From the IMG/VR virus record IMGVR_UViG_3300031920_000020, positions 1 through 36,625 of that record: a DNA stretch of 36,625 bases. One strand, written 5' to 3'. The stretch is from a virus. Under the pieces are notes generated by a model that saw nothing but the letters and a program-made list of their open reading frames with translations, made no database searches and was not told the origin of the DNA. Positions 1,988 to 35,162 of this stretch are shown here, one piece after another (the stretch's first letter is position 1; each line of letters opens with the position of its first letter). A program made the translations under genes and the position numbers.

Positions 1988-2308
1988 CTATATAGCTTCC
2001 TTTGCATCAGCAAACGGTATGATCTTACCTTTATTCCTCTCCTTAAGGGCAGCAAGCTTCTTGGCAAGAGGAGACTCCTCATCCATCTCCGCTGTTGTGC
2101 AAGAGACTCCATTGTACTCTACCCACTTCTGCATGGTAGCAAGGTCTCTTGAGTTGATAGCAAGTGCTATCTCCTCGGCATCATGCCCCTCATTCACCAG
2201 ATCTTCTACATGCTCAAGCATACTCTTAGCCTTTTGATTATGACACATAGTAATCAGCTTGTGCAGTATGCCTATCTGATCTTCTGTAGCTGCATTCTTA
2301 TTGCTCAT
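1988..2308 (-). CDS. Putative small terminase subunit (gp18 position)
   Basis: 106 aa, helical and charged. It ends 8 nt upstream of terL, whose SD overlaps its stop. The call rests on position only. Confidence 0.5.
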   Translation of the reverse strand: MSNKNAATEDQIGILHKLITMCHNQKAKSMLEHVEDLVNEGHDAEEIALAINSRDLATMQKWVEYNGVSCTTAEMDEESPLAKKLAALKERNKGKIIPFADAKEAI

Positions 2309-2471
2309 TCCTCCTCCTATTCTTTCCTCTAGCCTTATCTATCAACTTCCAAATAAGCAACGTTGCCTGAAGCACCATCAACACACCAGCTCCCGTCTCT
2401 GTCCAATTACTGGTGAGATAGGCACCCCATGTGAATCCTACGTGTCCTGTTACAACAATCACATCATCCAT
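2298..2471 (-). CDS. Putative holin (T7 gp17.5 position); 57 aa, below the ORF-track cutoff
   Basis: Hand translation gives MDDVIVVTGHVGFTWGAYLTSNWTETGAGVLMVLQATLLIWKLIDKARGKNRRRNEQ. It has a hydrophobic segment and a basic tail. It sits between the fibre and terS and overlaps the terS start. GGGGG lies 7 nt upstream of the ATG. Confidence 0.4.
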   Translation of the reverse strand: MDDVIVVTGHVGFTWGAYLTSNWTETGAGVLMVLQATLLIWKLIDKARGKNRRRNEQ

Positions 2472-2528
2472 GTATTGCCCCCGTACTCATGCCCTACTGT
2501 GGTAGCTAGGGCTTATTGATTATTACTT

Positions 2529-5057
2529 TCAATCACAATACTCTAATTGCAAAATGCCCTCAGTAAATGAAGATGTTATACTTGATAGTTGTACCGTAAT
2601 GACTTCATTTGAGTGTATAAGAGCTTCTGCTGCTGTTATAGCCCCAAGGTCTTTGAAGCTATAAGCAGTTCCATTCGCAAAACCTGCCGCAGTTACTAAT
2701 GTCCCACTAAAAGAACCTGTGGACAGATTTCTCTTACTCACCAGTACTTGCATTGACGTTATAGTATTGTTTACAAGTACACCTGCTCTGGCTATAAATG
2801 CGGGGAAGTCAACCACCATTATTAGGTGTAGCGTGGTATCGTTAACAATGCCAAATGATAACTTCTTTCCTAGCGTTAATGTATCGCCTTTTATCTGTGA
2901 AGTTGCATGGCCCGATGAGTCGTTGTCTTTTAAATATACCGCACCTGTCACAACAATCCCTTCGGTTTGGTGAGCACCATTGGGTCGAACTATATTACCA
3001 GTTATAATTCCGCCTGACCCGTTAACCACCAGGATTCCGATTCTCTGACCTGACCCCTCTAGCGTCCCATTGTTGTTTACAGTATTTCTGTTTATATCTA
3101 AATCGGTACAATCTTCTAACCTAACACCAGCCTTTCCATTTCCGTAAACAAAGTTACCGCTTACTTTTGGGCTATTACCATTTATCATATGCACACCATA
3201 TCCTGCATTGTTGTATATGTGGTTTGCCCCTTCTACAGCCACGGTATCAATACCAAGTTGAGCTGCCGTGTTATCTTCTACGGATATCCCATCATCATCA
3301 TTATCATATATGAAATTGCCTGATATTATATACTCCTTATCGCCCTCGACTATGGCTTCCGAATCATTCTGTTTAATATCTATTCCAGACGTAACATTAC
3401 CATAAATGTGATTATCAGTTATAATACATCTAGTTCCTTCTATAAATAGATCAATACCATCTTGTGATACAGCAGGATCGCCGTTGCCATTGTTCCTAAT
3501 TATATTATCGGTAATTATAATGTTCTGAACATTTCTGTAAGTCCTGAGTCCATCTCTTGAGGAAGCCTCCGAGATGTTCCCAACAAAAATTAATCCGTCA
3601 ATGTCAGAAAGGTACGTATTGTGAGAACAGTCATGGATATGACAGTTAGTTATTGAAACCCCTTCTGATTGTAAAACTCCGTTCTGTGTTTCGTGGCCAG
3701 AAATACCGCCCCACGATTGAGTAATTTCAGCGTGATCTATGCTGAAATCACTTCCTCCATTTAGTATTATTGATGCAGACCAAATATCTGTAATGGAGGC
3801 AGTCCACTTTCCACCATATATCTGAATATCATCATTTGTTATGATAAGGGAACCACTTGAAGTTGTGGTTCCGAACAAGGTGTGAGTCTCATATAATAAA
3901 GTAGCTCCCTTTGCGATGATTACAGTGCCCGCTAGAGGCTCCCAGTTAAGCAAGCTATAAGTTTTCCCCTGTTCAAACACTACTTTTTTGCTATGCACAT
4001 TAAAGGCAGCAACAACCGCAGTGTCATCCCCGCCCCCAGTAACACTTCCAAAATGAGATATTTTCAACTCTCCTTGTCTGACTAAGCAACTACTTGCACC
4101 TGTTGGATCAGAATCCAACGGTACATAAACCCCACCTAAAGGATCTGCTGCAACCTCTGCTGTATAATTTCCGGCAAGCAATAAGAACTCTCCGTCACCA
4201 CCATCACCTATAGCACTCCTTCCAAGTGTCTCATACTTCTGACCTGCTACCAGTGTGGTAGATGCACTCATCTGTGCTTTAGTATCAAAAGGTAAAGTCC
4301 AATCAGCAATGATCTGCTGTGCCTCTTCTAGTTGATCTAAGATGTCAGGCAATCCATTATGAGTGAAAGAGAATATTTTCACTGCTACACCTACTGGCAA
4401 CTCACTCCCTGCATTGACGTACTTTGTAGTGCCAGTAGTCACTAAGACACCAGAGATATCACAAGGGAAAGCATCATACTGTAGCACACCGTCAGCATAC
4501 AACGTGCTAGTTATAGGAAAGGCTGGTATAGAGAAGGACAACTCGAACACAGTCTTGGCTACTGCAACTACCTCTGTATGAGTCTGAGCTGCATTAATCT
4601 CGGCCGCTGCTAATGCTTCGTCCAGTTGTCCTAGAGTCACTGCGTCCTGTGCATTAACCCCATTTGCTAAGTTGAATATACTAAACCCACCCACGTTAAG
4701 AGCTTGCTTCTCATAATATGATTCACTCTTGAACCCATCTATAATATTATGAATGTTATAGAGCTGACTCTGGAACGACCTGTTCATATTAGTCTGGGTG
4801 AAGTCGCTTCCCCTTGAGAAGTCAGCATAAGGTGATGCGAAGTCAGGATCTCTTTTGATTCTAACTTTTGCCCCTATCACAGGGGTAACCGCCAGTGTAA
4901 CTTGAGTAGGCCCGGTCAGTGTAAATGCTACAACTACTTCATCTACAGTCACTATCAATTGATCTAAAGTCCAATACCCATTGTCTGGGCCTGTAAAGGC
5001 GAAGGGAAAGGCTACTTTGACCCCATCCCCTACCTCATCTGAAAAACTATATCCCAT
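2529..5057 (-). CDS. Tail fibre/tailspike: T7 gp17-like N-terminal adaptor plus right-handed beta-helix (pectate-lyase-like) domain
   Basis: 842 aa. The N-terminus (FPFAF..LIVTVDEV..DFSRGS..FQSQLYN..LNVGG..AQDAVTLGQL) looks like the gp17 N-domain. Residues about 470-700 carry repeated NxxxxG/NNxG beta-helix turns (ITDNIIRNNGNG, ISGNFIYDNDDDG, HIYNNAGYG, VSGNFVYGNGKAG, INRNTVNNNG). Confidence 0.85.
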   Translation of the reverse strand: MGYSFSDEVGDGVKVAFPFAFTGPDNGYWTLDQLIVTVDEVVVAFTLTGPTQVTLAVTPVIGAKVRIKRDPDFASPYADFSRGSDFTQTNMNRSFQSQLYNIHNIIDGFKSESYYEKQALNVGGFSIFNLANGVNAQDAVTLGQLDEALAAAEINAAQTHTEVVAVAKTVFELSFSIPAFPITSTLYADGVLQYDAFPCDISGVLVTTGTTKYVNAGSELPVGVAVKIFSFTHNGLPDILDQLEEAQQIIADWTLPFDTKAQMSASTTLVAGQKYETLGRSAIGDGGDGEFLLLAGNYTAEVAADPLGGVYVPLDSDPTGASSCLVRQGELKISHFGSVTGGGDDTAVVAAFNVHSKKVVFEQGKTYSLLNWEPLAGTVIIAKGATLLYETHTLFGTTTSSGSLIITNDDIQIYGGKWTASITDIWSASIILNGGSDFSIDHAEITQSWGGISGHETQNGVLQSEGVSITNCHIHDCSHNTYLSDIDGLIFVGNISEASSRDGLRTYRNVQNIIITDNIIRNNGNGDPAVSQDGIDLFIEGTRCIITDNHIYGNVTSGIDIKQNDSEAIVEGDKEYIISGNFIYDNDDDGISVEDNTAAQLGIDTVAVEGANHIYNNAGYGVHMINGNSPKVSGNFVYGNGKAGVRLEDCTDLDINRNTVNNNGTLEGSGQRIGILVVNGSGGIITGNIVRPNGAHQTEGIVVTGAVYLKDNDSSGHATSQIKGDTLTLGKKLSFGIVNDTTLHLIMVVDFPAFIARAGVLVNNTITSMQVLVSKRNLSTGSFSGTLVTAAGFANGTAYSFKDLGAITAAEALIHSNEVITVQLSSITSSFTEGILQLEYCD

Positions 5058-5065
5058 ATTTCCTC

Positions 5066-8000
5066 CTAGTCTACTATTCCTCTTAGAGCGTTTATGCCCT
5101 GATTGATCCCTATTGTCTTAGCAAAGGGTGCAATATCCTGAACTTCCTTAATCGCCCTACTCATTGTTTCATCCCCTGTGAGGGCTTGCATGATTACCTT
5201 CTGTGCTTCAAAGACATCCTTTGCTACTCCAATCACAGGTACTGAGTCATTAGTCATAGCTCTGGCACCTACCTGATCCCTACCTGATAGGAGTGCATCT
5301 GGGAGAACACCAAGAGTTGCCAGCCCATCCATCCCTATACCTACTGCTGCTAGTTGCCCCATCCTATTCAGGATACCTAGGGTCAGGTTGGAACCTGTCA
5401 TGTCACTGAGTATTTTCTCCTCAGCATTATCCTTTCCTAGGTTCCTCTGAAGTGAAGCTATACCTACCGCCATAAATCCGTACATAGCAGACTGCATACC
5501 TATCAGTGCACCCATAACCTTATCGTGCCTGATGTCATGCACTAGCTGTTTCTCCATAGATAATATAGAGAAGCTCCTGAACTGAGTCATGGTCTGGCCT
5601 AGCCACCTATTCATAAACTGTGGCATCTCACCTATCATGGGCCTCTGCATCTGTCTCATTGTTATTCGATGCATACCTATCTGCAACCTTTCCTGCATGT
5701 CAGGTGTCATCTTACCAAAGTTAAACATGTCAATTTCTCTTCCATTGATCTTAGCTGTCTTCGGGTTGTCCTTCATGAACTGTTTAACCTCATCTAAGAA
5801 CCCATCATGCCATCCAGCACTATTTATCTCAGCCTCACTGAGGAGACTCTTACCACCTTTCATCATCTTCTTTATATCTATGGCGAGTGCCCGTACAGCT
5901 AACCTCTCCCCTGTTCCCTGAATCAGTCGGAATCCGCTGGCTACTTCACCAATTCTCCTCCCCTGTGCTAACGCGTTATCAAAGTACTGTGCTATCCTAC
6001 TAGCTCCCTCAGCCTCCTCAATGTCATCAGCTCTGAGTCCATTTGGGTATAAGATATGGTCCTCACCATTGTACATGATTACATCCTCTAGTTCATCCAG
6101 ATCTTCTCTCTTCAGATGACCACTCCACTCTCCACCCTCTCTCAGGTGTTTAGTCCCCCTGATAGCTCCCAGATCCTTGACAGCTTCTAGGACTGAGGAT
6201 AACTGCCTTTGAGATGTGATACGTGCTAACTCCGGTATAGATGCAGCACCAACAAACTGTAGTCTAAGGAGAGATGTTGCACTCCTGACCCTGCTAAGAG
6301 CCTTAATCATCCCACTCTCATCTACAGGATTAAGAGTCCTTCCATAAGCCATATCAACTCCGTCCCTCAAGATCTTGATCTCCCTCTTAAGATCAGAAGC
6401 ATTCTGCCCTATATCCTCTCCTCTCTTTTCCAGTATAGCTATCTCATCAAGTACTTGAGATCTAGTTGTCAACCCTATCTTAGCAAAGGCTGCTCCTCCA
6501 GCAGCATCTCTGGTATAGGACTCAAGTATTCTAGGCAGATCATTAACTATAAGATCTATATACTTCAGACCATTTGATTCAACTGTGATGTTTGGACGTA
6601 ACGACTTCTTAGCCCTATTGCTCATATGCTGTCTTACTTCGGTATCCATGGAACTCTTTAAGAAGTCATCGACAACATCATCCTCAACTCCAGCCTTCTT
6701 GAGCTGATCAACTAGATCCTGTATGTCCTTATTGGTTGACTTCCTACCCTGCTCAGCCATTACTAGAGTATCATCCTTTGCTCTCTGTATATGAGCATCA
6801 GCCACCCTATCAGCTAGATCCTTTTCTAGTTGGAACCCACCCCTCTGGTACCCTAATGATAGTACCTCCCTTACGGTTGACTCCTCATTATTACGCAATG
6901 CATTCTTTATCTTTACACTATCCTGGATCACTGGGACATATGGTTTATTTAGATCTACATTCTCCATCCCAGCACCATTTGCATCTTGCCAGATCTTACC
7001 ACCTTTGTAGAACTGGTCCTTCCCCCCTTCAGCAGCAGCTTTAATAGCTGGAGAACTGGAGGTTCCAGGCGCATATAGTTCAAGCATTACTTCTTTATGA
7101 TACTTGTTAATATTGGATGGAACCATCAGGGACTTATAAGAACTGAGGCCATTCTCTGCACCCCATACTCTCATGTTCTCATTGAGTCTATTACGCATAG
7201 CCCCTCTAATCATAGTCTGACCATTCTTGACCCTGGATGCTATAGTTGCAGCAGCAGCTTTCCCACCCTGGGGTGCCTCGAAGAGTAAGTATCCGAACCC
7301 TCTTATAGCAAAGTTATGAGAGTTGGATATTCTAGCCTGTACAGACATGATAGCATCAGTAACTTTGGACTTCCAAGGAAGCATAGCCCCTCTTACATCC
7401 TCTGCTTGATCTATACCAAGCCGTTCGTAACCCTCTATCCTAGCTTTCTGTGAGGTGTCTAGCTTATGTATCTCAGGGACAGGGTTCTCAGTAAATCCAG
7501 ACTCGGCTGCACCTACAGACCCTGCCTTGCCACGCTCGGCCTTCTCAGCAGCATCCCTCTCCAAGGTTCCTTGCAGAGACTCTCTCTGCCTTTCAGCCTC
7601 AACCTTCAAAGAAGGTGGACCCTCATCCCCATATAGGATGTCTACCTTTTCCTGCTCTGTCATCTTATTCCACTTCCTCAGACTATTAGCAGATGTCTTT
7701 GCATCCCTCCCTACTTCCAGCCTGGCCTGGGCATCTGACAACTGCTCTGTCAGTAATCTCTTGGTCTCCTTAGCAGCTCTGGAAGCCTTCTTAAGAGAGT
7801 CAGTGAACTTCTTCTCAACCTTCTTTATGCTTCTTTTAAGAGATGTTTCAAGCTTAGCTGTCTCAACATCTCTGGCCTTCTTGGCCTTAGTTAGCTCTTC
7901 CTTCGCCTCAAATAACTGACCAGCTCTCTTATCTGTCTCTTTCCTTCTGATGAGGTCTTCCAGTCTACTGACCTTCTCCTCAGCCTTAGAGATGGTAGCT

Positions 8001-9031
8001 CCATGTTTAGCCTTGAGAGCTTCCCTTTTAGGTGACGCATTTTCTGCAAACTCTGATCTCTTGCTTGATGCTGCTTCCCTTTGCAGGGAGACCTCTCCTT
8101 GTGCTGATCGGAGTCTTTCATTCTCTACCTCTATCTTGAGTTTAATCTCCTCTACTTGCTTAGAGATCTGCTTAGCTTGACCCCTGTTAAGACCCCCTGC
8201 AACTCCAGCCCTTAGAGCTGATTCATGTTCATCCATGTCACGTATAATGATTACAGCATCTGCCTCTGGATGAGCCTTCTTAATAGGTAGCATTTCAGCA
8301 GGTAGGTTAGTAACCATCTGATCATGTATGATCTTGTTCTCAGCATCTATCCGTAGGGCGTGGTCAGCCTGATCAGCCTCCCTAGCTGCTCTTGGATTAA
8401 CACTTCTGGAGAGTGCACCTATGGTTCCACCTATTACAGCACCAGCACCAAATGACATTATTAGATCAGAAGACTCCCATTGAGTGCTGCCACCTAGTAG
8501 CATGGAATCGAGAAGAACTGCTTCAGTCCCAGTGGTGAGAGCATACTTGCTCATTCTAGCCAGTGCAGATCCTTTCTGAAGGAATCCTAGGCCACCAGAA
8601 GCCAAACTTGCAGCTATTGAGACAGGGTCTAACATGTAGAAAGCTAGAAGTGATGCACCTCCAACCCACCCCCCTTTCGCCATGTCTGACAGTCTCTTCT
8701 TATCTTCTGCAATAAACCTATGTCTAGCAGCAAGCTCATCCTTGGAGTTAGAATCCTCAAGGTACTTAGTGTCACTCTTATTGTATATGGACCTGAAGTC
8801 TTCAGACATCTTCTCAGTTATAGCAAAGTTATCACTCTTCTCAAACTGTGCAGATCTTCTCTCCCAGATTCTCTTGAGAGCAAATGGTATCATTGCCTCC
8901 CTAGCAGCAGCCCCTAGTACATCACCAGTGTCGAAATCATCTACTCTGGGCTTAGCAGACCTTGCCTTGTCCATGCTAGGTATCGGAGAAGCCTGTCGCA
9001 CGTTAGCATAGTAATCATTTGTTAATGGCAT
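5066..9031 (-). CDS. Large internal virion/ejection protein (gp16-like)
   Basis: 1321 aa. It is the last of the internal-protein block before the fibre. It has glycine-rich hydrophobic segments and a long charged coiled-coil region. Size and position match T7 gp16. Confidence 0.7.
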   Translation of the reverse strand: MPLTNDYYANVRQASPIPSMDKARSAKPRVDDFDTGDVLGAAAREAMIPFALKRIWERRSAQFEKSDNFAITEKMSEDFRSIYNKSDTKYLEDSNSKDELAARHRFIAEDKKRLSDMAKGGWVGGASLLAFYMLDPVSIAASLASGGLGFLQKGSALARMSKYALTTGTEAVLLDSMLLGGSTQWESSDLIMSFGAGAVIGGTIGALSRSVNPRAAREADQADHALRIDAENKIIHDQMVTNLPAEMLPIKKAHPEADAVIIIRDMDEHESALRAGVAGGLNRGQAKQISKQVEEIKLKIEVENERLRSAQGEVSLQREAASSKRSEFAENASPKREALKAKHGATISKAEEKVSRLEDLIRRKETDKRAGQLFEAKEELTKAKKARDVETAKLETSLKRSIKKVEKKFTDSLKKASRAAKETKRLLTEQLSDAQARLEVGRDAKTSANSLRKWNKMTEQEKVDILYGDEGPPSLKVEAERQRESLQGTLERDAAEKAERGKAGSVGAAESGFTENPVPEIHKLDTSQKARIEGYERLGIDQAEDVRGAMLPWKSKVTDAIMSVQARISNSHNFAIRGFGYLLFEAPQGGKAAAATIASRVKNGQTMIRGAMRNRLNENMRVWGAENGLSSYKSLMVPSNINKYHKEVMLELYAPGTSSSPAIKAAAEGGKDQFYKGGKIWQDANGAGMENVDLNKPYVPVIQDSVKIKNALRNNEESTVREVLSLGYQRGGFQLEKDLADRVADAHIQRAKDDTLVMAEQGRKSTNKDIQDLVDQLKKAGVEDDVVDDFLKSSMDTEVRQHMSNRAKKSLRPNITVESNGLKYIDLIVNDLPRILESYTRDAAGGAAFAKIGLTTRSQVLDEIAILEKRGEDIGQNASDLKREIKILRDGVDMAYGRTLNPVDESGMIKALSRVRSATSLLRLQFVGAASIPELARITSQRQLSSVLEAVKDLGAIRGTKHLREGGEWSGHLKREDLDELEDVIMYNGEDHILYPNGLRADDIEEAEGASRIAQYFDNALAQGRRIGEVASGFRLIQGTGERLAVRALAIDIKKMMKGGKSLLSEAEINSAGWHDGFLDEVKQFMKDNPKTAKINGREIDMFNFGKMTPDMQERLQIGMHRITMRQMQRPMIGEMPQFMNRWLGQTMTQFRSFSILSMEKQLVHDIRHDKVMGALIGMQSAMYGFMAVGIASLQRNLGKDNAEEKILSDMTGSNLTLGILNRMGQLAAVGIGMDGLATLGVLPDALLSGRDQVGARAMTNDSVPVIGVAKDVFEAQKVIMQALTGDETMSRAIKEVQDIAPFAKTIGINQGINALRGIVD

Positions 9032-10350: not shown

Positions 10351-12641
10351 TATCTACCTCCCTTTAATTTTATTGACTCTGTTATAGCAGCCTCCCTGTC
10401 AGCTAACCGCTTCTTACGAGCTTCGTTAACCTGCTTTAGTCTGAAAGCATCCTTAACTTTCTGCTTCTCACGGAGAGGAGCTTCTTTATCAAACCTAGTC
10501 TGTGCAGGAGAAGGAGCATGACTGAGACTTTGGGCCACTGCTGCTGCTCTAGCTGACCGTATACGTTCTGCTTCATCCTCTCCTTCCTGCTGCTTATCAG
10601 CTACTACCTTAGTAGCAGAAGCATTGTAACGATTAACAAAGTTCTTCATCTCACTCATAGGCTGGGTAGTTGATATAATTGAACCATGGCTAGTAGCCAG
10701 CCACATATTCCCACTATCAACATCAGTCTTAAGAAAGACATCATCAGCACTCATACCAAGAGCACTCAACTGTTCATCAAACAGGTCTATCGACTCAAAC
10801 TTATATCTTCCTATCCCATCATCTAGATGGTCATTGTCAACTCTAGTTAGCTCATGAATCTGATCCTCTGATCCATTCAACCTAGCACCAGATTCAGTAG
10901 TCATCCACTTCTTTCCGATCCATGACTTCAAGATAGCCTTAGAGCTGTCAGACCCTGGGTGAGGCTGGAGTCTTACCATCTCCCGTATCTGAGAAAATAC
11001 ATCCTCTCTCTGATTCTCAGGGATATCCTTCACCCACCAGTAGTACTCTGAAGAAGACATTATATCTTCTGTTACCTCATTTATTTCCTTCGCCGAAGTA
11101 ACGATGTTACGATCTTCATCTCTCTGAGCGTTAGCAACTGCCTCAATATCGTTGAAGAGTAGTTCCTTCTGGTACTGTATCCTTCTTAATATACTAGACT
11201 CTCTACTCCCTGCCTTCCTAGCGTAGGTGTCGAAAGCTGTAGGAGACATGTTCTTAATCATTGCCATTGTTGCAGTTGCCTTGTCAGACATCTTCCGTTC
11301 TCCAGAACTCTCATCAATCTCAGCAGGAACGTTAGTCCTCGCCAATGATGTAAAGTCTGAGACCCACTGCTTGTACAAAGCATTGGATTGAACAGTCTGG
11401 TCAGCAATCATCATAGTCCTAGTAACAGTAGCATTAGACAAGAATTTCTGTTTATCCGGTCCTGACATACCAGTAGTCTGCGACTCAGCATAATCCTCAG
11501 AGTTCTTTATCATAAACCCTATAGTACCTTGAACCTCGGAGTCCTTATAACTAGCCAGGCTAGTCGTATTAGGATCAGTGAGACCATCTACTATCTTACC
11601 CTGTCTCCAAGCAGTAGCGTCAGAAGTATCCATGTCCCTCATCAACTTACCGAACTGGGCAGCAGACATGAACTTATTCCCAGTCTCTGCATTCTTTGCA
11701 TCTACAAAGAGCTTGACTTCATCCCTTGTCATACTCGACGGGTTCCCATTTAGTCCTAACGCCCTTCCTTCAAGATCCTGTCTCTGCACTTCATACTCAA
11801 TAGCATTGTTAGCTTGGAGCTGATTGAAGTTATCCTTCTCTACCTTCTGGATCTTACCACTACGTGTATACAAGGAGGTCTTCCTATCTCCCGTGTAAGC
11901 CTTAGCAAGTTCAACAAGTGATGGATCTTTCGACAAGATGATAGCATTCTCTAGAGCTTCATCCTTCTGGGAAGACGTGAGCTTGAGGGACTCCAACATT
12001 CCGTTAGTAACATTTAGCATGTCCTTTGGATCAGCACTCTGTAAGCCACCATCTCTTGCAGCATTAACAAACACGTCCGTAGCAGAGTTAATCCTACCCT
12101 CAATCTCAAATCCAACCTTAGCTGCTGCTCTCTTCAGTCCTACCTGTGGCATTGCCTCCCTCATAGAGACTGCTGCAAGCTTCTGTAGTTCTATACCTTT
12201 TACATAAGTTGGATAGTTCAGCATGAGGAAATCATCCTGCTGTCTGTACTCTTCCCTTATAGCTTCCCTAAACTCCTCATCATTTATATTCTGTGAAGCC
12301 AGCTCATTTAGCCTAGAGGTAGCTCCCATCGTCTGTCCTTTAATAGCAACAGCTACATGAGCCTTATATCCCGCGTTAGTAGCATCATCAGTGGGATTGT
12401 ATCCCTCCATAGCTAGTGCAGTCTGTACAGCAACATCGGCCTCTACCTTCTTGGCAGTCTTCTTTATAAACTCATCACCAGCTATCCCAGCAAATCCTAT
12501 CAGAGCATTTGCTATCTCTGTCCCACTCGGTCCCTCCTGAACGGGTGGTCTAAATTGACCCACCCTAGATGCTAAGTCAGGTGAAGAGTTTGCTCTTCCT
12601 ACTTTTGGCCCCAAGGTAAAGGGGTTTCTCTCATCTGCCAT
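10350..12641 (-). CDS. Internal core protein (gp15-like)
   Basis: 763 aa. Position and size match T7 gp15. AAGGAGG SD is present and the TAATG stop-start overlaps the next gene. Confidence 0.6.
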   Translation of the reverse strand: MADERNPFTLGPKVGRANSSPDLASRVGQFRPPVQEGPSGTEIANALIGFAGIAGDEFIKKTAKKVEADVAVQTALAMEGYNPTDDATNAGYKAHVAVAIKGQTMGATSRLNELASQNINDEEFREAIREEYRQQDDFLMLNYPTYVKGIELQKLAAVSMREAMPQVGLKRAAAKVGFEIEGRINSATDVFVNAARDGGLQSADPKDMLNVTNGMLESLKLTSSQKDEALENAIILSKDPSLVELAKAYTGDRKTSLYTRSGKIQKVEKDNFNQLQANNAIEYEVQRQDLEGRALGLNGNPSSMTRDEVKLFVDAKNAETGNKFMSAAQFGKLMRDMDTSDATAWRQGKIVDGLTDPNTTSLASYKDSEVQGTIGFMIKNSEDYAESQTTGMSGPDKQKFLSNATVTRTMMIADQTVQSNALYKQWVSDFTSLARTNVPAEIDESSGERKMSDKATATMAMIKNMSPTAFDTYARKAGSRESSILRRIQYQKELLFNDIEAVANAQRDEDRNIVTSAKEINEVTEDIMSSSEYYWWVKDIPENQREDVFSQIREMVRLQPHPGSDSSKAILKSWIGKKWMTTESGARLNGSEDQIHELTRVDNDHLDDGIGRYKFESIDLFDEQLSALGMSADDVFLKTDVDSGNMWLATSHGSIISTTQPMSEMKNFVNRYNASATKVVADKQQEGEDEAERIRSARAAAVAQSLSHAPSPAQTRFDKEAPLREKQKVKDAFRLKQVNEARKKRLADREAAITESIKLKGGR

Positions 12642-12656
12642 ACACTCCTCCTTTTG

Positions 12657-13328
12657 TTATACTCCTCCCTGACCTCCAGGGCTGCTAGTCCTTGATCCGA
12701 AGCCTACGTTGCCTGTGAAGTTAATCTTCCCTGTTGTCTTACCTGTGGTAGATCCAGGGATAGCTTGCTGTGCAGACTTATATGCTCCTGCGACTCTTCC
12801 AGCGAGGGGAGAGACAGTATTGAAAGTGCTTAATCCAGTCTGAATAGCTGAGAAGAAAGCTGGCTTCTTGATTGCTACCTTCTTCCTGCTCTGAGTATTA
12901 GCTTGAATCCTCTCAGCAGTGTTAACTACATCATCCAGTTGAGAGTCCCTGGTCTGTGTTATGTCAGCCATCCTACCACCGAACCCTGTCTTGATATCCT
13001 GTAATGCTATATTCACTGAGTTACCATAAGTGCCTGTCACTGCTGCTTGAAGTCCAACCTGACTACGTGCCTCCAGCAACTGCCTCTGTGCTTCAAGGGA
13101 GCTAGCATGTGACTCATATATAATATCCTTCTCAGCAGAATCTAGCTCCTTATATTGCCTCATAGCATCAGCATGTAATCTCTCATTATACTCATTAGCA
13201 GCTTTCTTCTCTGCCCTATTCTGCTGAGTAGTCTGAACGAATGCCACTGCTGCTGACATAGCAGCAATAGCAGTAGATGCAGCAGTAGCCATCTGTACCG
13301 CAGTCATGGCTGCAAGTGTTACTCCCAT
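12657..13328 (-). CDS. Internal virion protein (gp14-like position)
   Basis: The start is trimmed to MGVTLAAM (ATG 13328), preceded by AAGGAG. The longer track ORF would overlap the upstream gene. The N-terminus is Ala-rich and hydrophobic. Confidence 0.5.
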   Translation of the reverse strand: MGVTLAAMTAVQMATAASTAIAAMSAAVAFVQTTQQNRAEKKAANEYNERLHADAMRQYKELDSAEKDIIYESHASSLEAQRQLLEARSQVGLQAAVTGTYGNSVNIALQDIKTGFGGRMADITQTRDSQLDDVVNTAERIQANTQSRKKVAIKKPAFFSAIQTGLSTFNTVSPLAGRVAGAYKSAQQAIPGSTTGKTTGKINFTGNVGFGSRTSSPGGQGGV

Positions 13329-17714: not shown

Positions 17715-18479
17715 CTAGATTCCCTTGTTGATTCCAGCCTGTCTGAGCTTATCATACTTCGCAGGATCTTTATGGTACTCCCCAGTTGGGAACAAGGCAA
17801 GATACTCAGCTTTGGTAAGGGCAGTTATCACGTCACCCTTTCCATTATCTCCCTCTTCTAAGTCTAGTACTACTGAATCAGCAGAGAGGACAGGCTTACC
17901 AGCTACCTCAAACTTAGCATACATATCTTTAATCATCAACTGTTGCATCCGCATAGAGCCATGCTCCATAACGTTATTAAATTCCTCTACCTCATCAGGT
18001 GGTAGATTGCGCTGAGCATAATCCGCCATATCGTCCCAACGATCCTCACCACCCATCACCTCTAGGGTAGCATCCCATGCTTTCTGAGAAGCTGCTGTGA
18101 ACTCCTCTACCTGAGATTTATGAGCAGACAATGTATTATCATTCTGTGCTTTAATTCCAGCAAGATATGAATCTACTTGCCACTTCCCAAACTTATCATA
18201 AAGGCTATCTTTTGTCTCATCAGATAGTGAGAAGTCCTCTGAGGCATATAGCTCGGAAGCAACAGCGGATATATCAATTCCTGCTTCTCCTGCCAAATTA
18301 GCTAGGTCTGCTGGTATTGTGACAGTACCCTCAAAGTCACCAAGCTTTACTGAATCTTGAATAACATCTTCAGTTACAGCAACCCACTCACCTTCTGCTG
18401 GCTCTACTGGAATAACTGGCTCTGTAGGTTCTACTGGAATAACTGGCTCTATTGGATCTATTACAATCTCTTCACTCAT
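17715..18479 (-). CDS. Scaffolding protein (gp9-like)
   Basis: 254 aa and acidic, between portal and capsid, with an ATGA overlap to the portal stop. The N-terminus has a tandem 27-nt/9-aa repeat (EPVIPVEPT x2; 18412..18459). Confidence 0.7.
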   Translation of the reverse strand: MSEEIVIDPIEPVIPVEPTEPVIPVEPAEGEWVAVTEDVIQDSVKLGDFEGTVTIPADLANLAGEAGIDISAVASELYASEDFSLSDETKDSLYDKFGKWQVDSYLAGIKAQNDNTLSAHKSQVEEFTAASQKAWDATLEVMGGEDRWDDMADYAQRNLPPDEVEEFNNVMEHGSMRMQQLMIKDMYAKFEVAGKPVLSADSVVLDLEEGDNGKGDVITALTKAEYLALFPTGEYHKDPAKYDKLRQAGINKGI

Positions 18480-18935
18480 TGTGCTCCTCCTTGTCCCATA
18501 CCTTGTTTAAGTAGCTCAGGTGCAGCCTTGACAGTAGCTTCCTGCATTGCAGCATCTTGAGATGCTTTGGCTTCTCCAGCTAATACTTCTTTATACTCAT
18601 CTTCAGTCATGACCCATGGTGACTCCATAGACAAGGCAGCAGCAATCTCCCTTGAGTAGATGTCGAACTTAGTCCTCTTCTGTACAGGCTCAGGCCAAGT
18701 GAGAGGAAGTTGCATCATCTCTGTATAAGTTCTGATCTTATCCAGATCTCCTGATCTTCCGAACGCTGCTAGCCCTGTTATAATATCAGGATTGACAGAA
18801 CCAACTAAAGGGAATTTTATCTTCCTCAAGTACATATTAGCTAGTGGCTTCTGCATGGTCTCTGCAAGTAGCCCATAGACTCCACCTAATGAGACCTCTA
18901 GCTCCTGTGCATCTATCCTGAGTTCGACTGTAGTT
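18476..18935 (-). CDS. Portal protein, exon 2 (C-terminal 153 codons)
   Basis: The frame is open upstream of the track ATG back to 18934 (TTVELRIDAQELEVSLGGVYGLLAET-MQKPL...). It continues the conserved portal motif that is interrupted at 19678. Confidence 0.8.
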
Positions 18936-19677
18936 CATTAATATTATCGTAGGTTCGTTATTCCTACACTGCATGTTACCATGCAGATTAGACTATATCT
19001 TGCCCGCAATAGGCCTACTTGTTTCGAGCCACTTAGCTCTACTTCCTTTCGGAATAGTCGTTACACACCAACATTAAACTAACTTTGAAGTGATGTGACT
19101 CCAGTTCTTCCCTTGCCTAACTGACTTTATAGCGCCCACAGACACAGGGAGTTTTAGTTTATCCCTTATCTGTCTAGCTGTTAAAGTAGAATGTCTAAGA
19201 CTCCATATGGAGATGACATCAGTCTCTGTCAAGAGACTTATAGGGTTCTTTTCCCCCTTGTTAGTCTTTAATCCAGTATCATAAGCATGTTGTACATTTT
19301 GCTTACTGGTACACCACTCCAGATTTGAAGCTGTGTTTATGTACCTCTCTCCTTTAATATGATTTACCTGTGGGAGATTAAGTGGATTAGGGATGAAGTG
19401 TTCAGCAACTAGAAGATGAAGCGGATAGAATTTATCAAGATGTACTTTGACATATCTATTCTTTTTCGTAATTGTTGTACCCTTCAAGGTAACACCTGTT
19501 GTCTCATTAACTACGACACCAAGTGTATCTATACTGTATTCACATTTTAAATCTTTGTTTAGTCTTATCTTTCTGTAGAGCATTTAAGTCTCCTTAGTTA
19601 AAGATTAGTTGTTGCTAGGTATTGTCCCATAGGGAGTTTCACCTAATTAAAGTAGTTTATAGAGGGCAACTTTGTCT
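18936..19677 (-). mobile_element. Group I intron (742 nt) interrupting the portal gene; carries an HNH homing endonuclease ORF
   Basis: The 5' exon ends in U (GAGAGGGU|AGACAAAGUUGCCCUC). Intron nt 11-16 (GCCCUC) pair with exon GAGGGU to form P1 with a U.G pair. AGUU pairs with exon-2 AACU to form P10. The intron ends in G (UAUUAAUG|AACUAC). The 3' part has GNRA-capped stems (UUCC-GAAA-GGAA, CUGCAUG-GUAA-CAUGCAG). The spliced ORF is in frame. Confidence 0.8.
19074..19583 (-). CDS. Intron-encoded HNH homing endonuclease
   Basis: 169 aa. HNH_3-type motif: HLLVAEHFIPNP..QVNHIKGERYINTASNLEWCTSKQNVQHA. The C-terminus looks like a helix-turn-helix DNA-binding tail. It has its own SD (AAGGAG). Confidence 0.85.
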   Translation of the reverse strand: MLYRKIRLNKDLKCEYSIDTLGVVVNETTGVTLKGTTITKKNRYVKVHLDKFYPLHLLVAEHFIPNPLNLPQVNHIKGERYINTASNLEWCTSKQNVQHAYDTGLKTNKGEKNPISLLTETDVISIWSLRHSTLTARQIRDKLKLPVSVGAIKSVRQGKNWSHITSKLV

Positions 19678-20795
19678 ACCCTCTCGGCATCACGTCTAGC
19701 AGCGGAGTTCAGCAAGAATGCTTGACCAATCCTCTTCTCATACTCCTTGAGTACTTCTACTATAGGTGTAAAGTCCCCCAATCTCTCAAGCTGTAAGATC
19801 CCTACATCATCCATATTACCAAATATCCACTCCCCTGATGGTGCCGTGGAAATCTCATCTATGTCTGTCTCAGACCCTGGCTTGATTAGGTACTTGATGT
19901 CAGCCATCATTGCCATGCCTTTGACTAGGGCTTCAGATAGGAACTCAACTACATAAAAGTCACCTGCATAATCCTCTACGTGACCTCTACCATAATCCTC
20001 TCCACTAGCACTATTCCACCTGAGAGGTATCCAAGGCAGTTCCCCTTCAGGCACATCGAGAGGCTCTTTTATCACGATACCCTCTACAGCTTGAGTGACA
20101 GTGAAGGTCTCATGATCCTGCCTAACTACCCAAGTGTATATTGTTATGATAGCATTCTCGTCAGGTGCCTTGTCTCCTTTAATTATTTTGATACCTTCGA
20201 TGATATCGGGAGAGAGAGCAGAGAATGCTTTCTTCTGAGTTATGATAAGTTCAAGTAGGTTACCACTGAGGTCTCTCTGAAGTACATATCTGTCCAGCTT
20301 GATAGCCTGTAGCTTACCACCTTCTGGCAGTGCCATTAGAATATTACCTGAGATGATAAGGCTCTTCATTGCTTCTGTATATGCTACACGTGCAGCTATA
20401 GTCTCTGTATACGTCATTGCTTGCTTCTCTGCCTTAACTAAAAGCTCAGACAGCTTTGTTGCATCATGCCCTTCCTTCTTTAGAGAAGCTTTTGCTAATT
20501 CATTAAACTCTAATTTGAAGAAGGATCTTCCTACTGGAAACATATTAATGACAAGCTTGTTACTTAAGTGATTTACTGCCTGTGCTCCGATTGACTGGAA
20601 CCCATGCTGGTTAGCTCCAGCTCCTCTAGTAGTCCCATCATTATCAGGATACATAGAGGGAAGAGTGAACCTAGAGTACTCCCTTGCTTGATCTAAGAAT
20701 ACATTTCTATCTGATACCAAGGTCGAGTTCCTTGACTCCACATCAGATGGCGATCCTTTGGGCCTCCTTACTGCAACAGTGCGGTGCTCAGCCAT
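19678..20795 (-). CDS. Portal protein, exon 1 (N-terminal 372 codons plus 2 nt)
   Basis: gp8-like (..GANQHGFQSIGAQAVNHLSNKL..., ...SGEDYGRGHVEDYAGDF...). In the unspliced ORF, ...LNSAARRDAERV is followed by 9 intron-encoded codons and a stop. Confidence 0.85.
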
Positions 20796-28624: not shown

Positions 28625-31132
28625 CTAGTGGGTCTCAGTCCAACTAAGCCCAATTTTATACTCTCCTGCTGTTGGACATAGCAATCTTAGCTCCTCGCCA
28701 GCCCATGTTATAGAGTCACAGTATAGCTGTCCTAGTGGATGATACCTACGCTGGATGATCCAAGCATCTTCTCTCTTCTCAATCACAGTTGGTGCAGACC
28801 ACATCCTTCCTTCACTATCCCTGTGTTCTCTCTTCTCATCTAACTTCCATGCTTCCTTTGTAGGTTTGATATGATACTCATATGACAGCACCTCACTCTC
28901 TGGGACTTCCATCTGTGCCTCATCATGCTGATGAGCTACCATCCTAAAATCTGCTGCACGTTCTATTAGCCCTTGCTCCACTGCCATATCTTCTGCTCTA
29001 ACGTGTGCATGTTTCATGACAAGAGATCCTGTCATCTGTAGCAGTACATTAAGAGCTGTATGAATGGATAAGGTCTTGCCCTTGCTACGGATACGTCCAC
29101 GCCTACCATCTACAGCAAGCATGTACCCGAACTTCTTACCAGCAGCTTGCACTCCTTCAATCAGAGTAGCCAGCTTAGGTAGCTGCTCCTTGAATAACTC
29201 TACAGCATCAGCCATGTCCTGCATCTTCAGTCCTAGCTGCCTTGCAAGGTTCTTAATACCAGAGCCATACAGGAATGAATACACAAATACCTTGGCAATG
29301 TCACGGCTAGTAAGTCCAGCCTTCTCTTGATTGTAGGTGTGAATATCACCATTAAGTATGATGTCTGTATACTCTGGATCATTCATGAAGTGAGCAAGCA
29401 TCCTCAGTTCCAGACCTGCTCCATCACACCCAAGCAACATCATCCCTGGACCAGCTATGAAACATCTCCTCATCTGAGTCCCATACAGTCCACGAGCTGG
29501 GATGTTGACTACTATCTTATGTCTCATGCGATGGGTGTTGGTTGCACAAGCAAAGGCGTGTGCTGGTACTCTCCAGTGACCTGATGTAGGCCACACTCCA
29601 TTTAGTTCGTAGTATTCTTGAGCAGTGATGCTGCCGTGAGTAGCTCCAGCTCCCCAAAGTCTAGATTTAGGCAGGAGTCCACGGCATTCGTTATTCTTGC
29701 TAGCTTGTCTAGGCCATCTCTTGTTGAGACTGAAGTAATCAACATCTTTTCGGTTGAGTAACTGTGTACGCCGCGCGGACAGTATGTACCAACGTGCAAT
29801 ACCCTTGCACCAGTCGGGCACTGTGGATTCTGATTCTTCCCATCTTTCGAGGGACTTATCATCAATCTTCCCGGCCCATGGCTTGGGCAAGTCACCGTCG
29901 TTCTCTTCGATATAATCCGTTTCTGCATCATTGAAGTTGACTCCTATCCATCCATATTTGTATAGTATCTGCTTGACCTCATCTCTGTTACCAAGTGGTA
30001 TGTCTTCCCAGACTAGAGGTGTAAACGGGCCAGCAACTGGAGGCTTAGGGTAAGCTACGATATGCTTAACTCCTAAATGATCTGCTACCTCCAAGTCTAC
30101 AGTATGATCCTGCATGAACCCTCTTGCTGCTGGCACATGCTTGGTAACATTCTTTCCATACTCTCCATTCTTCTTAGTGATAGCCCAGATAGTTGAAGCG
30201 TACCCAGCCCTCATATCACCATTTAGCATATGATTCTCGTACTCCCCGGCTGGCATTGACAATAGCTCAGCTATAGCTGCCGCATTCTTCTCTATAGCAG
30301 CCTCACTATACTTCTTCATCTTAATACGTTGAGGCATGTGAGGCATGAATGCATCTCTGGTTGCTTTGATCTCTATGTCAAGCTCCTCTATGAGAGAACC
30401 CATAAACTCTACATCTATCGCAAACCCACGCTCAGCTTGATAGGCTACTGACTGTGCTACTCTGAACTCGTTCTCATAGGCTGAACGAATATCCTTTCCT
30501 GTTATATTATGAGGTCTATCAAGATGATCATCCCACTCTTTCATAAGGAAATTAAAGAAGTCCTCACCAATCTCAACATCCTCTGCTACCCTGTGTATCA
30601 TATCAATAGATAGGTGAGACCAATCTTCATGGTGTGGCTTGTGCCTGTCTATCCTTATACCATGTGCTGCAATAGAGTGAGGAGGTACATTACCTAAGCC
30701 TAGGTGCAGTGCTGCCCAAGGTGCCCTCCTCTCTGGGTTAAGAACCTGACTCATCACCATGGTATCAGCAGTCTTAAACGGGAACAGCTCATGGTTGATT
30801 CGTTGCATGTGATTACGCTTGATCTTAACACCCATAGCCTTCTCTATAGCTAGTTGGTCATACCCAACTACATTCTGCCAGATGAGGACATCACAGGTCT
30901 CGATACATCTGATACCTTCAGCCATATCTCCAGCCTTCTCATCTTCTTCATACTCATCCAGCCATACTGGATCTACTCTATCATTGAAGTCGTCAAAGAA
31001 AGAGAATGTCTCCCCTGAGTAGTAGTCTTTTAACCTGAGTATATGTAGATCCTCTCTGTGTCCTGGGCGAATATCAGGGAGGAGACCTACTGCTTCTAAA
31101 TCAGCGGTTAATACTCTTCCTTTTCCGTTCAT
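28625..31132 (-). CDS. Family A DNA polymerase with 3'-5' exonuclease domain
   Basis: Exo I is LTADLEAVGL. Motif A is CDGAGLELRMLAHF, motif B is RDIAKVFVYSFLYGSG and motif C is VAHQHDEAQMEV. Confidence 0.9.
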   Translation of the reverse strand: MNGKGRVLTADLEAVGLLPDIRPGHREDLHILRLKDYYSGETFSFFDDFNDRVDPVWLDEYEEDEKAGDMAEGIRCIETCDVLIWQNVVGYDQLAIEKAMGVKIKRNHMQRINHELFPFKTADTMVMSQVLNPERRAPWAALHLGLGNVPPHSIAAHGIRIDRHKPHHEDWSHLSIDMIHRVAEDVEIGEDFFNFLMKEWDDHLDRPHNITGKDIRSAYENEFRVAQSVAYQAERGFAIDVEFMGSLIEELDIEIKATRDAFMPHMPQRIKMKKYSEAAIEKNAAAIAELLSMPAGEYENHMLNGDMRAGYASTIWAITKKNGEYGKNVTKHVPAARGFMQDHTVDLEVADHLGVKHIVAYPKPPVAGPFTPLVWEDIPLGNRDEVKQILYKYGWIGVNFNDAETDYIEENDGDLPKPWAGKIDDKSLERWEESESTVPDWCKGIARWYILSARRTQLLNRKDVDYFSLNKRWPRQASKNNECRGLLPKSRLWGAGATHGSITAQEYYELNGVWPTSGHWRVPAHAFACATNTHRMRHKIVVNIPARGLYGTQMRRCFIAGPGMMLLGCDGAGLELRMLAHFMNDPEYTDIILNGDIHTYNQEKAGLTSRDIAKVFVYSFLYGSGIKNLARQLGLKMQDMADAVELFKEQLPKLATLIEGVQAAGKKFGYMLAVDGRRGRIRSKGKTLSIHTALNVLLQMTGSLVMKHAHVRAEDMAVEQGLIERAADFRMVAHQHDEAQMEVPESEVLSYEYHIKPTKEAWKLDEKREHRDSEGRMWSAPTVIEKREDAWIIQRRYHPLGQLYCDSITWAGEELRLLCPTAGEYKIGLSWTETH

Positions 31133-34226: not shown

Positions 34227-35162
34227 TCACAATAGAAATGTTTCTTTGAATGTTTGTAAGCCTTTCCTCCCTGTCCACCCAGCAGTATGACCACCTTCAA
34301 GAATGTACTTAAAGGATGGCCCACTAACCTTATCAGCGAGAGCTAGTACTTGCCTTGAGTCAGTGATATTATCAGTTCTACCAGCGTAGCAATGAGTTGG
34401 ACAGGTGATGCTTTCTAGCTTAACTAGTTTACCATTCACTCTCCATGTCCCATCATACAGTCTGTTATCACGGAACAGATTTTCTAACGCATCCATAAAC
34501 CACACACCAGCTAGATCAAGTTTGTTATCGTACCATGCATTATTCTTATCCCACTTGGCAAGACCAACCTCATCACTGTTACGTACCATCTCGGCTCTAT
34601 CAAGGTGTCGTTGTACATAGATCTGATGAGGGTCAACCATACTAAATGCAAGCCATTGCAAGGCACCTAGTTGAAGCCCTAAGTTCATCATTACTACCAT
34701 GCGTTGCATCTCTACCACAAAGGGCTTGCGCATGTGCTTCTCAATCAGATTATCAGGAGCACAGTTAGTATTAATAGGGGCCACAAATACAGCCAGCTTC
34801 TTAACGTTATCAGGGTTCTGTGCAGTGTAGATGCTAGATACCCACCCACCCTGACACAACCCGACTATCTCAATGTCAACACCAAGGAACTCATGTATTG
34901 CACCTATAGCATTGACAAGATCACTAACACTTGTATTATTTGTCATCCATGTAGCTGACTTAAGCTCGAATGCTACTACAGGTCTTCCAGTCTGGACAGC
35001 AACTTTTATGAGGTTAAGGCTAATAGTCCAGTCCCGACCAGCATGTGGAGGAACTACTACTATTGGTGTTCCTGTTCCTGTTGAAAACATGTGCCATACA
35101 TAAACAGGTGTCTCGATAACTTTGGTACTACCATATTTAGTTTCCATTGTAACCTCAATCAA
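34227..35162 (-). CDS. PHA-synthase-like (class III PhaC-like) alpha/beta-hydrolase with Cys nucleophile
   Basis: 311 aa. Motifs are PIVVVPPHAGRDW, GxCxGG box GLCQGGW, NLFRDNRLYDGTWRVNGKLVKLESITCPTHCYAGRTDNITD and EGGHTAG. This gives a Cys-Asp-His order as in PhaC. Confidence 0.65.
   Translation of the reverse strand: MIEVTMETKYGSTKVIETPVYVWHMFSTGTGTPIVVVPPHAGRDWTISLNLIKVAVQTGRPVVAFELKSATWMTNNTSVSDLVNAIGAIHEFLGVDIEIVGLCQGGWVSSIYTAQNPDNVKKLAVFVAPINTNCAPDNLIEKHMRKPFVVEMQRMVVMMNLGLQLGALQWLAFSMVDPHQIYVQRHLDRAEMVRNSDEVGLAKWDKNNAWYDNKLDLAGVWFMDALENLFRDNRLYDGTWRVNGKLVKLESITCPTHCYAGRTDNITDSRQVLALADKVSGPSFKYILEGGHTAGWTGRKGLQTFKETFLL

Follow-up and report, generated by a model that had tools for sequence, protein, structure and literature searches.

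The virus record IMGVR_UViG_3300031920_000020 of IMG/VR comprises 36,625 nucleotides (nt), which were analysed over their full length and are referred to here as the window. We conclude that in this T7-like podovirus a mobile group I intron, which belongs to subgroup IA2, interrupts the gene for the portal (head-to-tail connector) and is inserted after the second base of a valine codon in the sequence RRDAERV/T (the slash marks the insertion). The probability of this reading is estimated at about 93%. It is carried by intron boundaries that restore a colinear open reading frame (ORF), by a covarying RNA fold and by the homology of an intron-encoded HNH endonuclease. In addition, introns occur at the same site in several very divergent portal lineages, and the HNH protein is conserved in excess of its host gene. 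The kind of element is well known and its mechanism is textbook knowledge; the host gene and the site are the part for which no description was found.

The interrupted portal gene

The portal is encoded in two pieces on the minus strand (Table 1). Exon 1 ends with ...GAG AGG GU at position 19678, that is, after base 2 of the valine codon. Read-through of this frame into the insert yields DKVALYKLL and then a UAA, and the resulting ORF (19647..20795) ends ...ERVDKVALYKLL*. The bases of this UAA are invariant in the ten same-site introns that were aligned as described below. The frame of exon 2 is open from 18935, and joining of the exons (1118 + 460 = 1578 nt) gives a product of 525 amino acids (aa) that reads ...RRDAERV followed by TTVELRIDAQELEVSLGGVYG. 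The two pieces abut at positions 371/372 of the Pfam profile PF12236 and together cover positions 4-486 of 489. Uninterrupted homologues of 524-528 aa, which share 64-67% identity with the spliced product, read RRDAERVTTVELR[IL]DAQELE.SLGGVYS, and the junction is free of insertions and deletions. The spliced portal also aligns end to end with the solved portals PDB 7Y22 (E = 4e-102) and T7 gp8 (6R21, E = 1e-70), and T7-family portal structures read RTGERVTAEEIRYVASELEDTLGGVYS at the junction region.

The insertion lies in a strongly conserved part of the gene. In an alignment of 61 portals, residues 368-382 form the densest cluster of conserved columns, ten of which are either invariant (R368, E371, R372, T374 and E377) or at least 90% conserved (A370, V373, R379, D381 and A382); the split falls inside codon V373, before T374. 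At the DNA level, the closest intron-less allele examined (contig L122) reads GCAGAGAGGGTAACTACTGTAGAG at the site, and a 60-nt segment placed on the site is 82% identical between both sequences, compared to 65% overall, which ranks it in the top 2% of such segments. The conservation of both the protein motif and the DNA fits the usual tendency of homing endonucleases to target conserved sites.

A preliminary description of this DNA had proposed that an intron splits the portal gene at its most conserved motif. Its coordinates and sequence statements all hold on the minus strand, and the comparisons above bear out the exact abutment of the two pieces, the in-frame 525-aa portal, the T7 gp8 sequence that it gave and the exceptional conservation of the motif.

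Intron architecture and covariation

The insert consists of 94 nt of 5' non-coding sequence, a 510-nt ORF and 138 nt of 3' non-coding sequence. P2 is absent, whereas P1, P3-P9, P7.1 and P7.2 are all present and fully paired in the window, and minimum free energy (MFE) folding of the RNA without its ORF returns all of the nested helices. The assignment to subgroup IA2 follows from the presence of P7.1 and P7.2 between P7 and the 3' strand of P3; the two helices are joined via A-GUA-G, and both covary.

Table 1. Positions of the portal exons, the intron, its structural elements and its ORF in the window.
Feature	Position	Strand	Sequence or evidence
Portal (head-to-tail connector) exon 1	20795..19678	-	1118 nt; Pfam PF12236 positions 4-371, E = 2.9e-44
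Portal exon 2	18935..18476	-	460 nt including stop codon; Pfam PF12236 positions 372-486
Group I intron, subgroup IA2	19677..18936	-	742 nt; boundaries from P1 U.G and terminal G, both conserved in 10 homologues
P1 hairpin	19683..19662	-	exon GAGGGU (19683..19678) with guide GCCCUC (19667..19662); U.G at splice site
P1 loop		-	10 nt; contains AGUU (19671..19668), the P10 5' strand
P10	19671..19668 with 18935..18932	-	AGUU with exon-2 AACU; sequence pairing
P3 5' strand	19655..19650	-	CUACUU; pairs with 19015..19020
UAA ending the exon-1 frame	19649..19647	-	inside the intron, in J3/4 just past P3; 9 codons beyond the splice site
P4-P5 domain	19645..19616	-	A-rich J4/5 and J5/4 joints
P4	19645..19641 with 19620..19616	-	UAGGU with ACCUA; 2 compensatory pairs; MFE fold
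P5	19635..19632 with 19628..19625	-	UCCC with GGGA; 3 compensatory pairs; MFE fold
P6 and P6a 5' strands	19615..19608	-	GCA (P6), CAAC (P6a); ORF-bearing loop opens here
Shine-Dalgarno sequence	19595..19590	-	AAGGAG; 6 nt upstream of the HNH start codon; sequence
Putative HNH homing endonuclease ORF, I-HmuI-like	19583..19074	-	169 aa; in the P6a loop, between two covarying strands
P6a and P6 3' strands	19072..19065	-	GUUG (P6a), UGU (P6); begin 1 nt past the ORF stop codon
P7 5' strand	19059..19054	-	GACUAU; pseudoknot partner 18991..18996 (AUAGUC)
P7.1	19053..19044	-	UCC-GAAA-GGA; GNRA loop GAAA; 1 compensatory pair
Linker between P7.1 and P7.2	within 19053..19026	-	AGUAG; sequence
P7.2	19039..19026	-	GAGCU-AAGU-GGCUC; 2 compensatory pairs
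P3 3' strand	19020..19015	-	AAGUAG; covariation
P8 hairpin	19014..19002	-	GCCU-AUUGC-GGGC; 4/4 pairs compensatory
J8/7 and P7 3' strand	19001..18991	-	AAGAUAUAGUC; catalytic-core consensus; Rfam RF00028 local match
P9	18985..18970	-	UGCAUG-GUAA-CAUGCA; GNRA loop GUAA; 4/6 pairs compensatory
P9.1, further 3' hairpin	18967..18949	-	GUAGG...CCUAC; 5 compensatory pairs
Terminal G (omega-G)	18936	-	G in 10/10 homologues

The fold was evaluated on a MAFFT alignment of ten non-identical same-site portal introns from divergent podoviruses, from which the ORFs had been removed. The scored structure comprised P1, P3, P4, P5, P6, P6a, the P7 pseudoknot, P7.1, P7.2, P8, P9 and P9.1. Standard pairs occupy 97.7% of 569 cells, a value that is somewhat inflated because the ten introns are relatives of each other and the structure was derived from the window sequence; the robust measures are the number of compensatory pairs and the slid controls. 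Compensatory changes on both sides were found for 33 of 57 pairs. The covariation score reached 0.548, compared to 0.175 +/- 0.017 in shuffled alignments, and none of 500 shuffles attained the observed value on any measure. When the 3' partners were slid by 1-3 columns, pairing dropped to 36-46% and the number of compensatory pairs to 7-13. Individual helices contribute to a different extent: five of six pairs are compensatory in P3 (100% of cells paired) and six of seven in P6/P6a, the counts for P8 and P9 being given in Table 1, and P7.1 and P7.2 are paired in 100% of their cells. P7, with invariant pairs throughout (98% of cells paired), is the sole helix without compensatory pairs and is uninformative on covariation.

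The boundaries are conserved as well. P1 forms with six of six pairs in all ten sequences, the U.G pair at the splice site is invariant, and the outermost pair is G-C in six sequences and A-U in four. A terminal G is present in all ten introns, whose boundaries were set independently via the reading frame. P10 comprises 3-4 base pairs (bp) in five of the ten (the window, L016, L030, L068 and L037), where it covaries between AAC(U) with (A)GUU and CAC(A) with (U)GUG. Thus, the junction features that had been named for this DNA, i.e. the U at the end of exon 1, the P1 helix with its U.G pair, P10 between AGUU and AACU, the terminal G and the GNRA-capped 3' helices, are all found, and the P3-P8 core that had been set as a check emerges from the comparative analysis.

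At the gathering threshold, Rfam gives zero matches in the whole window. Below it, positions 221-251 of RF00028 match 19001..18971, the end that comprises J8/7, P7 and P9, in a local alignment (26.5 bits, E = 2e-4). A sub-threshold local match is expected, because the 510-nt ORF in P6a should block a full-length match. The portal intron of the cultured phage Gaspode aligns over the full length of RF00028 (32.9 bits, E = 2.9e-5), and ORF-less introns in other genes, which have the identical 25-nt P7/P7.1 core, score 55-86 bits with a gathering score of 50. A naturally ORF-less portal intron was sought for full-length scoring, with P0098 and P0081, which end exactly at ERV, as candidates, and none was found. 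L125 has a 171-aa HNH_3 ORF after exon 1 and L127 a 91-aa ORF in the same interval, and both score ~27 bits. No other group I core was found in the window, and its DNA polymerase gene is uninterrupted.

These data also bear on the possibility that the gene is split without any splicing: after insertion of a homing endonuclease gene, each portal fragment would be made as a separate protein, and the two would together form a functional portal. Functional split genes do exist in phages (PMC8351571), and Friedrich et al. (2007), as cited there, report that a gene divided by a homing endonuclease stays active. GenBank furthermore annotates homologous loci as 'collar protein', 'HNH homing endonuclease' and 'head to tail connecting protein'. 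Against this stands the structure of exon 2, which contains no ATG, GTG or TTG before 18856; translated alone, it would lose 26 codons, including those for the invariant E377, G390, G391 and Y393 and for the invariant LGG.Y motif. A mere insertion also gives no reason why ~230 nt of non-coding flanks are kept as a covarying group I fold across portals of ~30% identity, and in ten of ten cases the boundaries conform to the rules of a U.G pair and a terminal G. We therefore regard separate translation of the fragments as very unlikely.

Same-site introns in other phages

A BLAST search with the 3' core retrieved ~35 GenBank records of Pectobacterium Phimunavirus phages, with 82% identity over 100 nt. 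For Gaspode and PP90, the matching stretch is set among an ORF annotated as 'collar' or 'head to tail connecting', one annotated as 'HNH homing endonuclease' and another, short connector ORF, and the insertion point is identical to that of the window (GAA AGG GU / ... G / N ACN, DNA read). The same arrangement as in PP90, with a collar protein, an HNH gene and a head-to-tail connector fragment, is seen in Pseudomonas phage Ep4 (L128, LC776701.1 22498..24773), which belongs to another subfamily, Slopekvirinae. A 25-nt DNA pattern of P7/P7.1, which includes the P7 5' strand, retrieved more than 119 IMG/VR loci; according to tblastn, 17 of these pattern loci contain a portal split at the same residue, and they represent eight distinct sequence types. 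Protein data point in the same direction: among the best 120 portal protein clusters, nine (~8%) are 371-388 aa long, and all nine end with ...RRDAERV and a brief read-through such as DKVALYKLL, which corresponds to the translated segment from the P1 loop to P3. The preliminary description knew of no intron in a podovirus portal gene; this has been overtaken by the same intron in the same codon of ~35 Phimunavirus records, Ep4 and many IMG/VR contigs.

The distribution is patchy, because the portals closest to that of the window (P0002-P0004, 64-67% identity) are intron-less. The nearest intron-bearing portals are P0042 (66%, 382 aa), P0044 (63%) and the L030/L068 type (62%). When the locus was compared with GenBank phages by megablast, no near relatives were detected, and the sole match was 33 nt of the core in Vibrio phage 11895-B1. 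This stretch (HQ634157.1 66369..66401) is 100% identical to the J8/7-P7-P9 segment 19001..18969 and carries no annotated feature; the 126-kb genome of this phage probably contains an unannotated group I intron. A search for related IMG/VR loci with the spliced portal protein returned none, and blastn with the junction of exon 1 and the intron's 5' end gave one irrelevant match only.

Related introns were also observed outside the portal gene. In L003 (IMG/VR UViG_3300045988_012432), the family-A DNA polymerase gene (6017..8582) is interrupted by an intron whose IA2 core is the same, with an upstream ORF that ends ...NAKTFIYGFL; this is also seen in L013. The portal gene of L003 likewise contains a same-site intron (12324..13072), and thus two sibling introns reside in one podovirus. 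In L011, L044, L056, L066, L076, L086, L100 and L111, the portal gene is uninterrupted and a same-core intron is located ~3-4 kb upstream in another gene, which by analogy is probably that of the DNA polymerase. L041 contains three separate RF00028 matches above the gathering score (62-75 bits) within 1.3 kb (2212..3508), which suggests a multiply interrupted gene, recalling Twort orf142.

It could be argued that the intron of the window is decayed or splicing-defective, or that the contig derives from a defective genome, and that the portal gene is effectively a pseudogene. The sequence is indeed metagenomic and no isolate exists, and the Rfam score stays below the gathering threshold. However, all core helices are intact and the HNH ORF has its full length, and an independent Logan assembly (SRR1971621, contig L123) contains the identical 382-aa exon-1 product, followed by 169- and 126-aa genes in the same order. 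Moreover, PP90, Gaspode and Ep4 are cultured, plaque-forming phages whose single portal gene contains the homologous intron, and since these phages are viable, the intron must be removed. A decayed element is for these reasons as improbable as an unspliced split gene.

The intron-encoded endonuclease and its probable mobility

The HNH ORF matches PHROG 59 'HNH endonuclease' with E = 1.5e-32. Its only match in the PDB is I-HmuI (1U3E, E = 2.4e-4), with residues 13-105 of 169 aligned to residues 10-105 of 174, and the His, Asn and Asn-Leu-Glu-Trp residues coincide in this alignment. Intact orthologues of 161-241 aa are present in ten of ten portal introns, and the nearest relatives in phage genomes are located in same-site portal introns or are annotated as homing endonucleases of Bacillus phages. 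The ORF had earlier been called free-standing, with its own Shine-Dalgarno sequence. The latter is present (Table 1), whereas the term free-standing does not apply, because it denotes a homing endonuclease gene outside any intron and this ORF is encoded within the P6a loop.

Between distant hosts, the endonuclease is conserved about twice as strongly as the portal (58-64% identity against 29-35%): the HNH protein of the window shares 58-64% identity with those of Gaspode, L006 and L016, while the portals share 30-36%. The Ep4 protein is 63% identical to that of the window. In the close pair Gaspode/PP90, the order is reversed, with 92% identity for HNH and 99% for the portal. As the endonuclease evolves faster than the portal in the close pair, whereas its similarity between distant hosts is twice that of the portal, these values suggest horizontal transfer between lineages.

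It is barely credible that the HNH protein serves mainly as an accessory nuclease in DNA packaging, as in cos-type phages, and that its position inside the portal gene and thus within the morphogenesis module reflects this role. HNH genes are common beside the terminase and portal genes of some phages, but among solved structures the nearest relative is I-HmuI, an intron-encoded nickase of equal length and domain order, the position in P6a is the same as that of the endonucleases in T7-like DNA polymerase introns, the nearest phage relatives are those named above, the closest portal relatives are devoid of HNH entirely and, to our knowledge, T7-type terminases package DNA without such an HNH factor.

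Proposed mechanism and significance

Splicing of the portal transcript would follow the established chemistry of group I introns, a two-step transesterification that is initiated by guanosine. The pre-mRNA would fold into P1 and the P3-P9 core, and an external guanosine in P7 would attack the phosphate after the U of the P1 U.G pair (19678). The terminal G (18936) would then take over the G site, and the freed 3'-OH of exon 1 would attack the 3' splice site, which P10 would keep in register, resulting in a ligated mRNA for the 525-aa portal. The HNH ORF would be translated from its own ribosome-binding site in the P6a loop into a 169-aa I-HmuI-like endonuclease. By analogy to I-HmuI, I-BasI, I-TslI and I-PfoP3I, this enzyme may, in mixed infections, nick portal alleles that lack the intron, close to the point of insertion, and recombinational repair would copy the intron into the nicked allele (homing). 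Splicing, nicking together with its target, and homing are the steps that we infer from the features described above.

Several points weigh against an active mobile intron. Splicing of the window intron and of the same-site portal introns is predicted from their sequences, and no demonstration at the RNA level was found. P10 comprises only 0-2 bp in the other five of the ten homologues, and the percentage of paired cells is inflated as noted above. The Rfam score of the window (26.5 bits, local) is below the gathering score of 50, and the Pfam HNH_3 match of the ORF reaches 15.1 bits, under the cut-off of 24.8 bits. Finally, the residue before the catalytic His is Asn instead of the Asp of I-HmuI, and the activity of the HNH protein is therefore assumed.

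Beyond the single locus, we tentatively raise the possibility that the introns form a widespread and unrecognised portal-specific IA2 lineage, which jumps horizontally between podoviruses with portals of ~30% identity and always inserts at the invariant ERV/T codons, and whose nickase might also be a weapon of interference competition against co-infecting intron-less relatives. Such a function was shown for the endonuclease of the PhiPA3 RNA-polymerase intron (Birkholz et al. 2024, PMC11620839). If it applied here, the nickase would damage the essential portal gene of intron-less relatives in the same cell, and the intron would be more than a purely selfish passenger.

A full-text literature search, whose coverage does not extend to most subscription journals, revealed no report of a group I intron in the portal/head-tail-connector gene of Autographiviridae. 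Dozens of deposited Autographiviridae genomes contain an unannotated ribozyme and a portal that is recorded as two proteins. They include Phimunavirus phages that are under study for the biocontrol of potato soft rot, and Pseudomonas phage Ep4. As the portal serves as a standard marker in phylogeny and taxonomy, trees and pangenomes are distorted by its truncated calls. The T7-like IA2/HNH intron family also gains an essential virion gene as a target, with data that suggest transfer between lineages. The portal of phage phiM1, an intron-minus relative on the same host as the intron-plus phages PP90 and Gaspode, is annotated as a single ORF. Such a cultured intron-plus/intron-minus pair lends itself readily to studies of homing and marker exclusion, and of how an intron in a structural gene may mediate competition between phages.

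Genome context

All genes of the window are located on the minus strand and show a T7-like order, in which primase-helicase, family-A DNA polymerase, ligase and portal are followed by scaffold, capsid, tail tube, internal proteins, fibre and terminase. The closest portals in GenBank, from Marinomonas and Vibrio podoviruses, are only 40-45% identical, and the window thus represents an uncultured lineage. A gene for a GNAT acetyltransferase (PF00583, 20987..21472, minus strand), followed by a gene of ~60 aa, lies immediately upstream of the portal gene; this arrangement is kept in intron-plus and intron-minus relatives (L122, L123 and L125-L127). An ORF of 311 aa in the early region (34227..35162, minus strand) has weak Pfam matches to alpha/beta-hydrolase, PHB-depolymerase-C and DUF3141 (E = 5e-6 to 7e-4, all under the cut-offs), a content that is unusual for a T7-like early region. 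The 835-aa ORF at 28625..31132 encodes the family-A DNA polymerase and not an RNA polymerase, and no match to an RNA polymerase family was detected among the ten large ORFs of the window that were scanned, a set that leaves out the structural proteins, the tail fibre and many small ORFs.

Comparison with known systems

The closest well-studied counterparts are the introns that interrupt the DNA polymerase genes in the T7-like phages PhiI, W31 and Pf-WMP3, which contain P1-P10 without P2, P7.1 and P7.2 linked by G-U-A, which defines IA2, a 4-bp P10 and an HNH gene in P6a (Kong et al. 2012, PMC3428280). The window intron shares with them the type of phage, the lack of P2, the G-U-A-joined P7.1/P7.2, a short P10 of 4 bp and an HNH ORF of ~160-170 aa in P6a. 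The polymerase gene of L003, too, contains an intron whose P7/P7.1 core is identical. In contrast, the polymerase introns target a polymerase motif and the window intron the portal sequence RRDAERV/T. In addition, experiments have demonstrated splicing and nicking for the polymerase introns, while both are predicted from the nucleotide sequence for the window intron. In Pf-WMP3, the ORF extends into P7-P7.2, whereas that of the window ends 1 nt before the 3' strand of P6a.

With the Phimunavirus phages (PP90, Gaspode, Nobby, Clickz and others) and Ep4, the window shares the exact point of insertion, after base 2 of the Val codon at ERV/T, a homologous ribozyme core, an orthologous HNH protein (57-63% identity), and P1 and P3 helices that covary with its own. 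These phages differ in their portals, which are ~30% identical to that of the window, in an extra hairpin after P9 and in having little or no P10. They are annotated with two connector ORFs ('collar protein' and 'head to tail connecting protein') and an HNH gene. For PP90, Buttimer et al. 2018 (PMC6115819) described that a homing endonuclease splits the connector and did not mention an intron.

Group I introns in a phage structural gene with the same J8/7-P7-P9 consensus are also known from orf142 (tail tube) of Staphylococcus phage Twort. In BLAST comparisons, the core is 71% identical over 135 nt to a Twort orf142 intron; the three introns of this gene, each of only ~225-290 nt, reach 64-101 bits in Rfam and thus exceed the gathering score. 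In the td intron of phage T4, the ORF for I-TevI, a GIY-YIG enzyme, occupies the P6a loop, as does the ORF of the window. The Twort and T4 introns are distinct from that of the window in host lineage, target gene and endonuclease family. Finally, I-HmuI, the nickase of the DNA polymerase intron in Bacillus phage SPO1, shows low sequence similarity to the window HNH protein and has an Asp where the latter has an Asn before the catalytic His, but both proteins share their length and the succession of N-terminal DNA-binding strands and the HNH motif (H...N...N-L-E/R-W).

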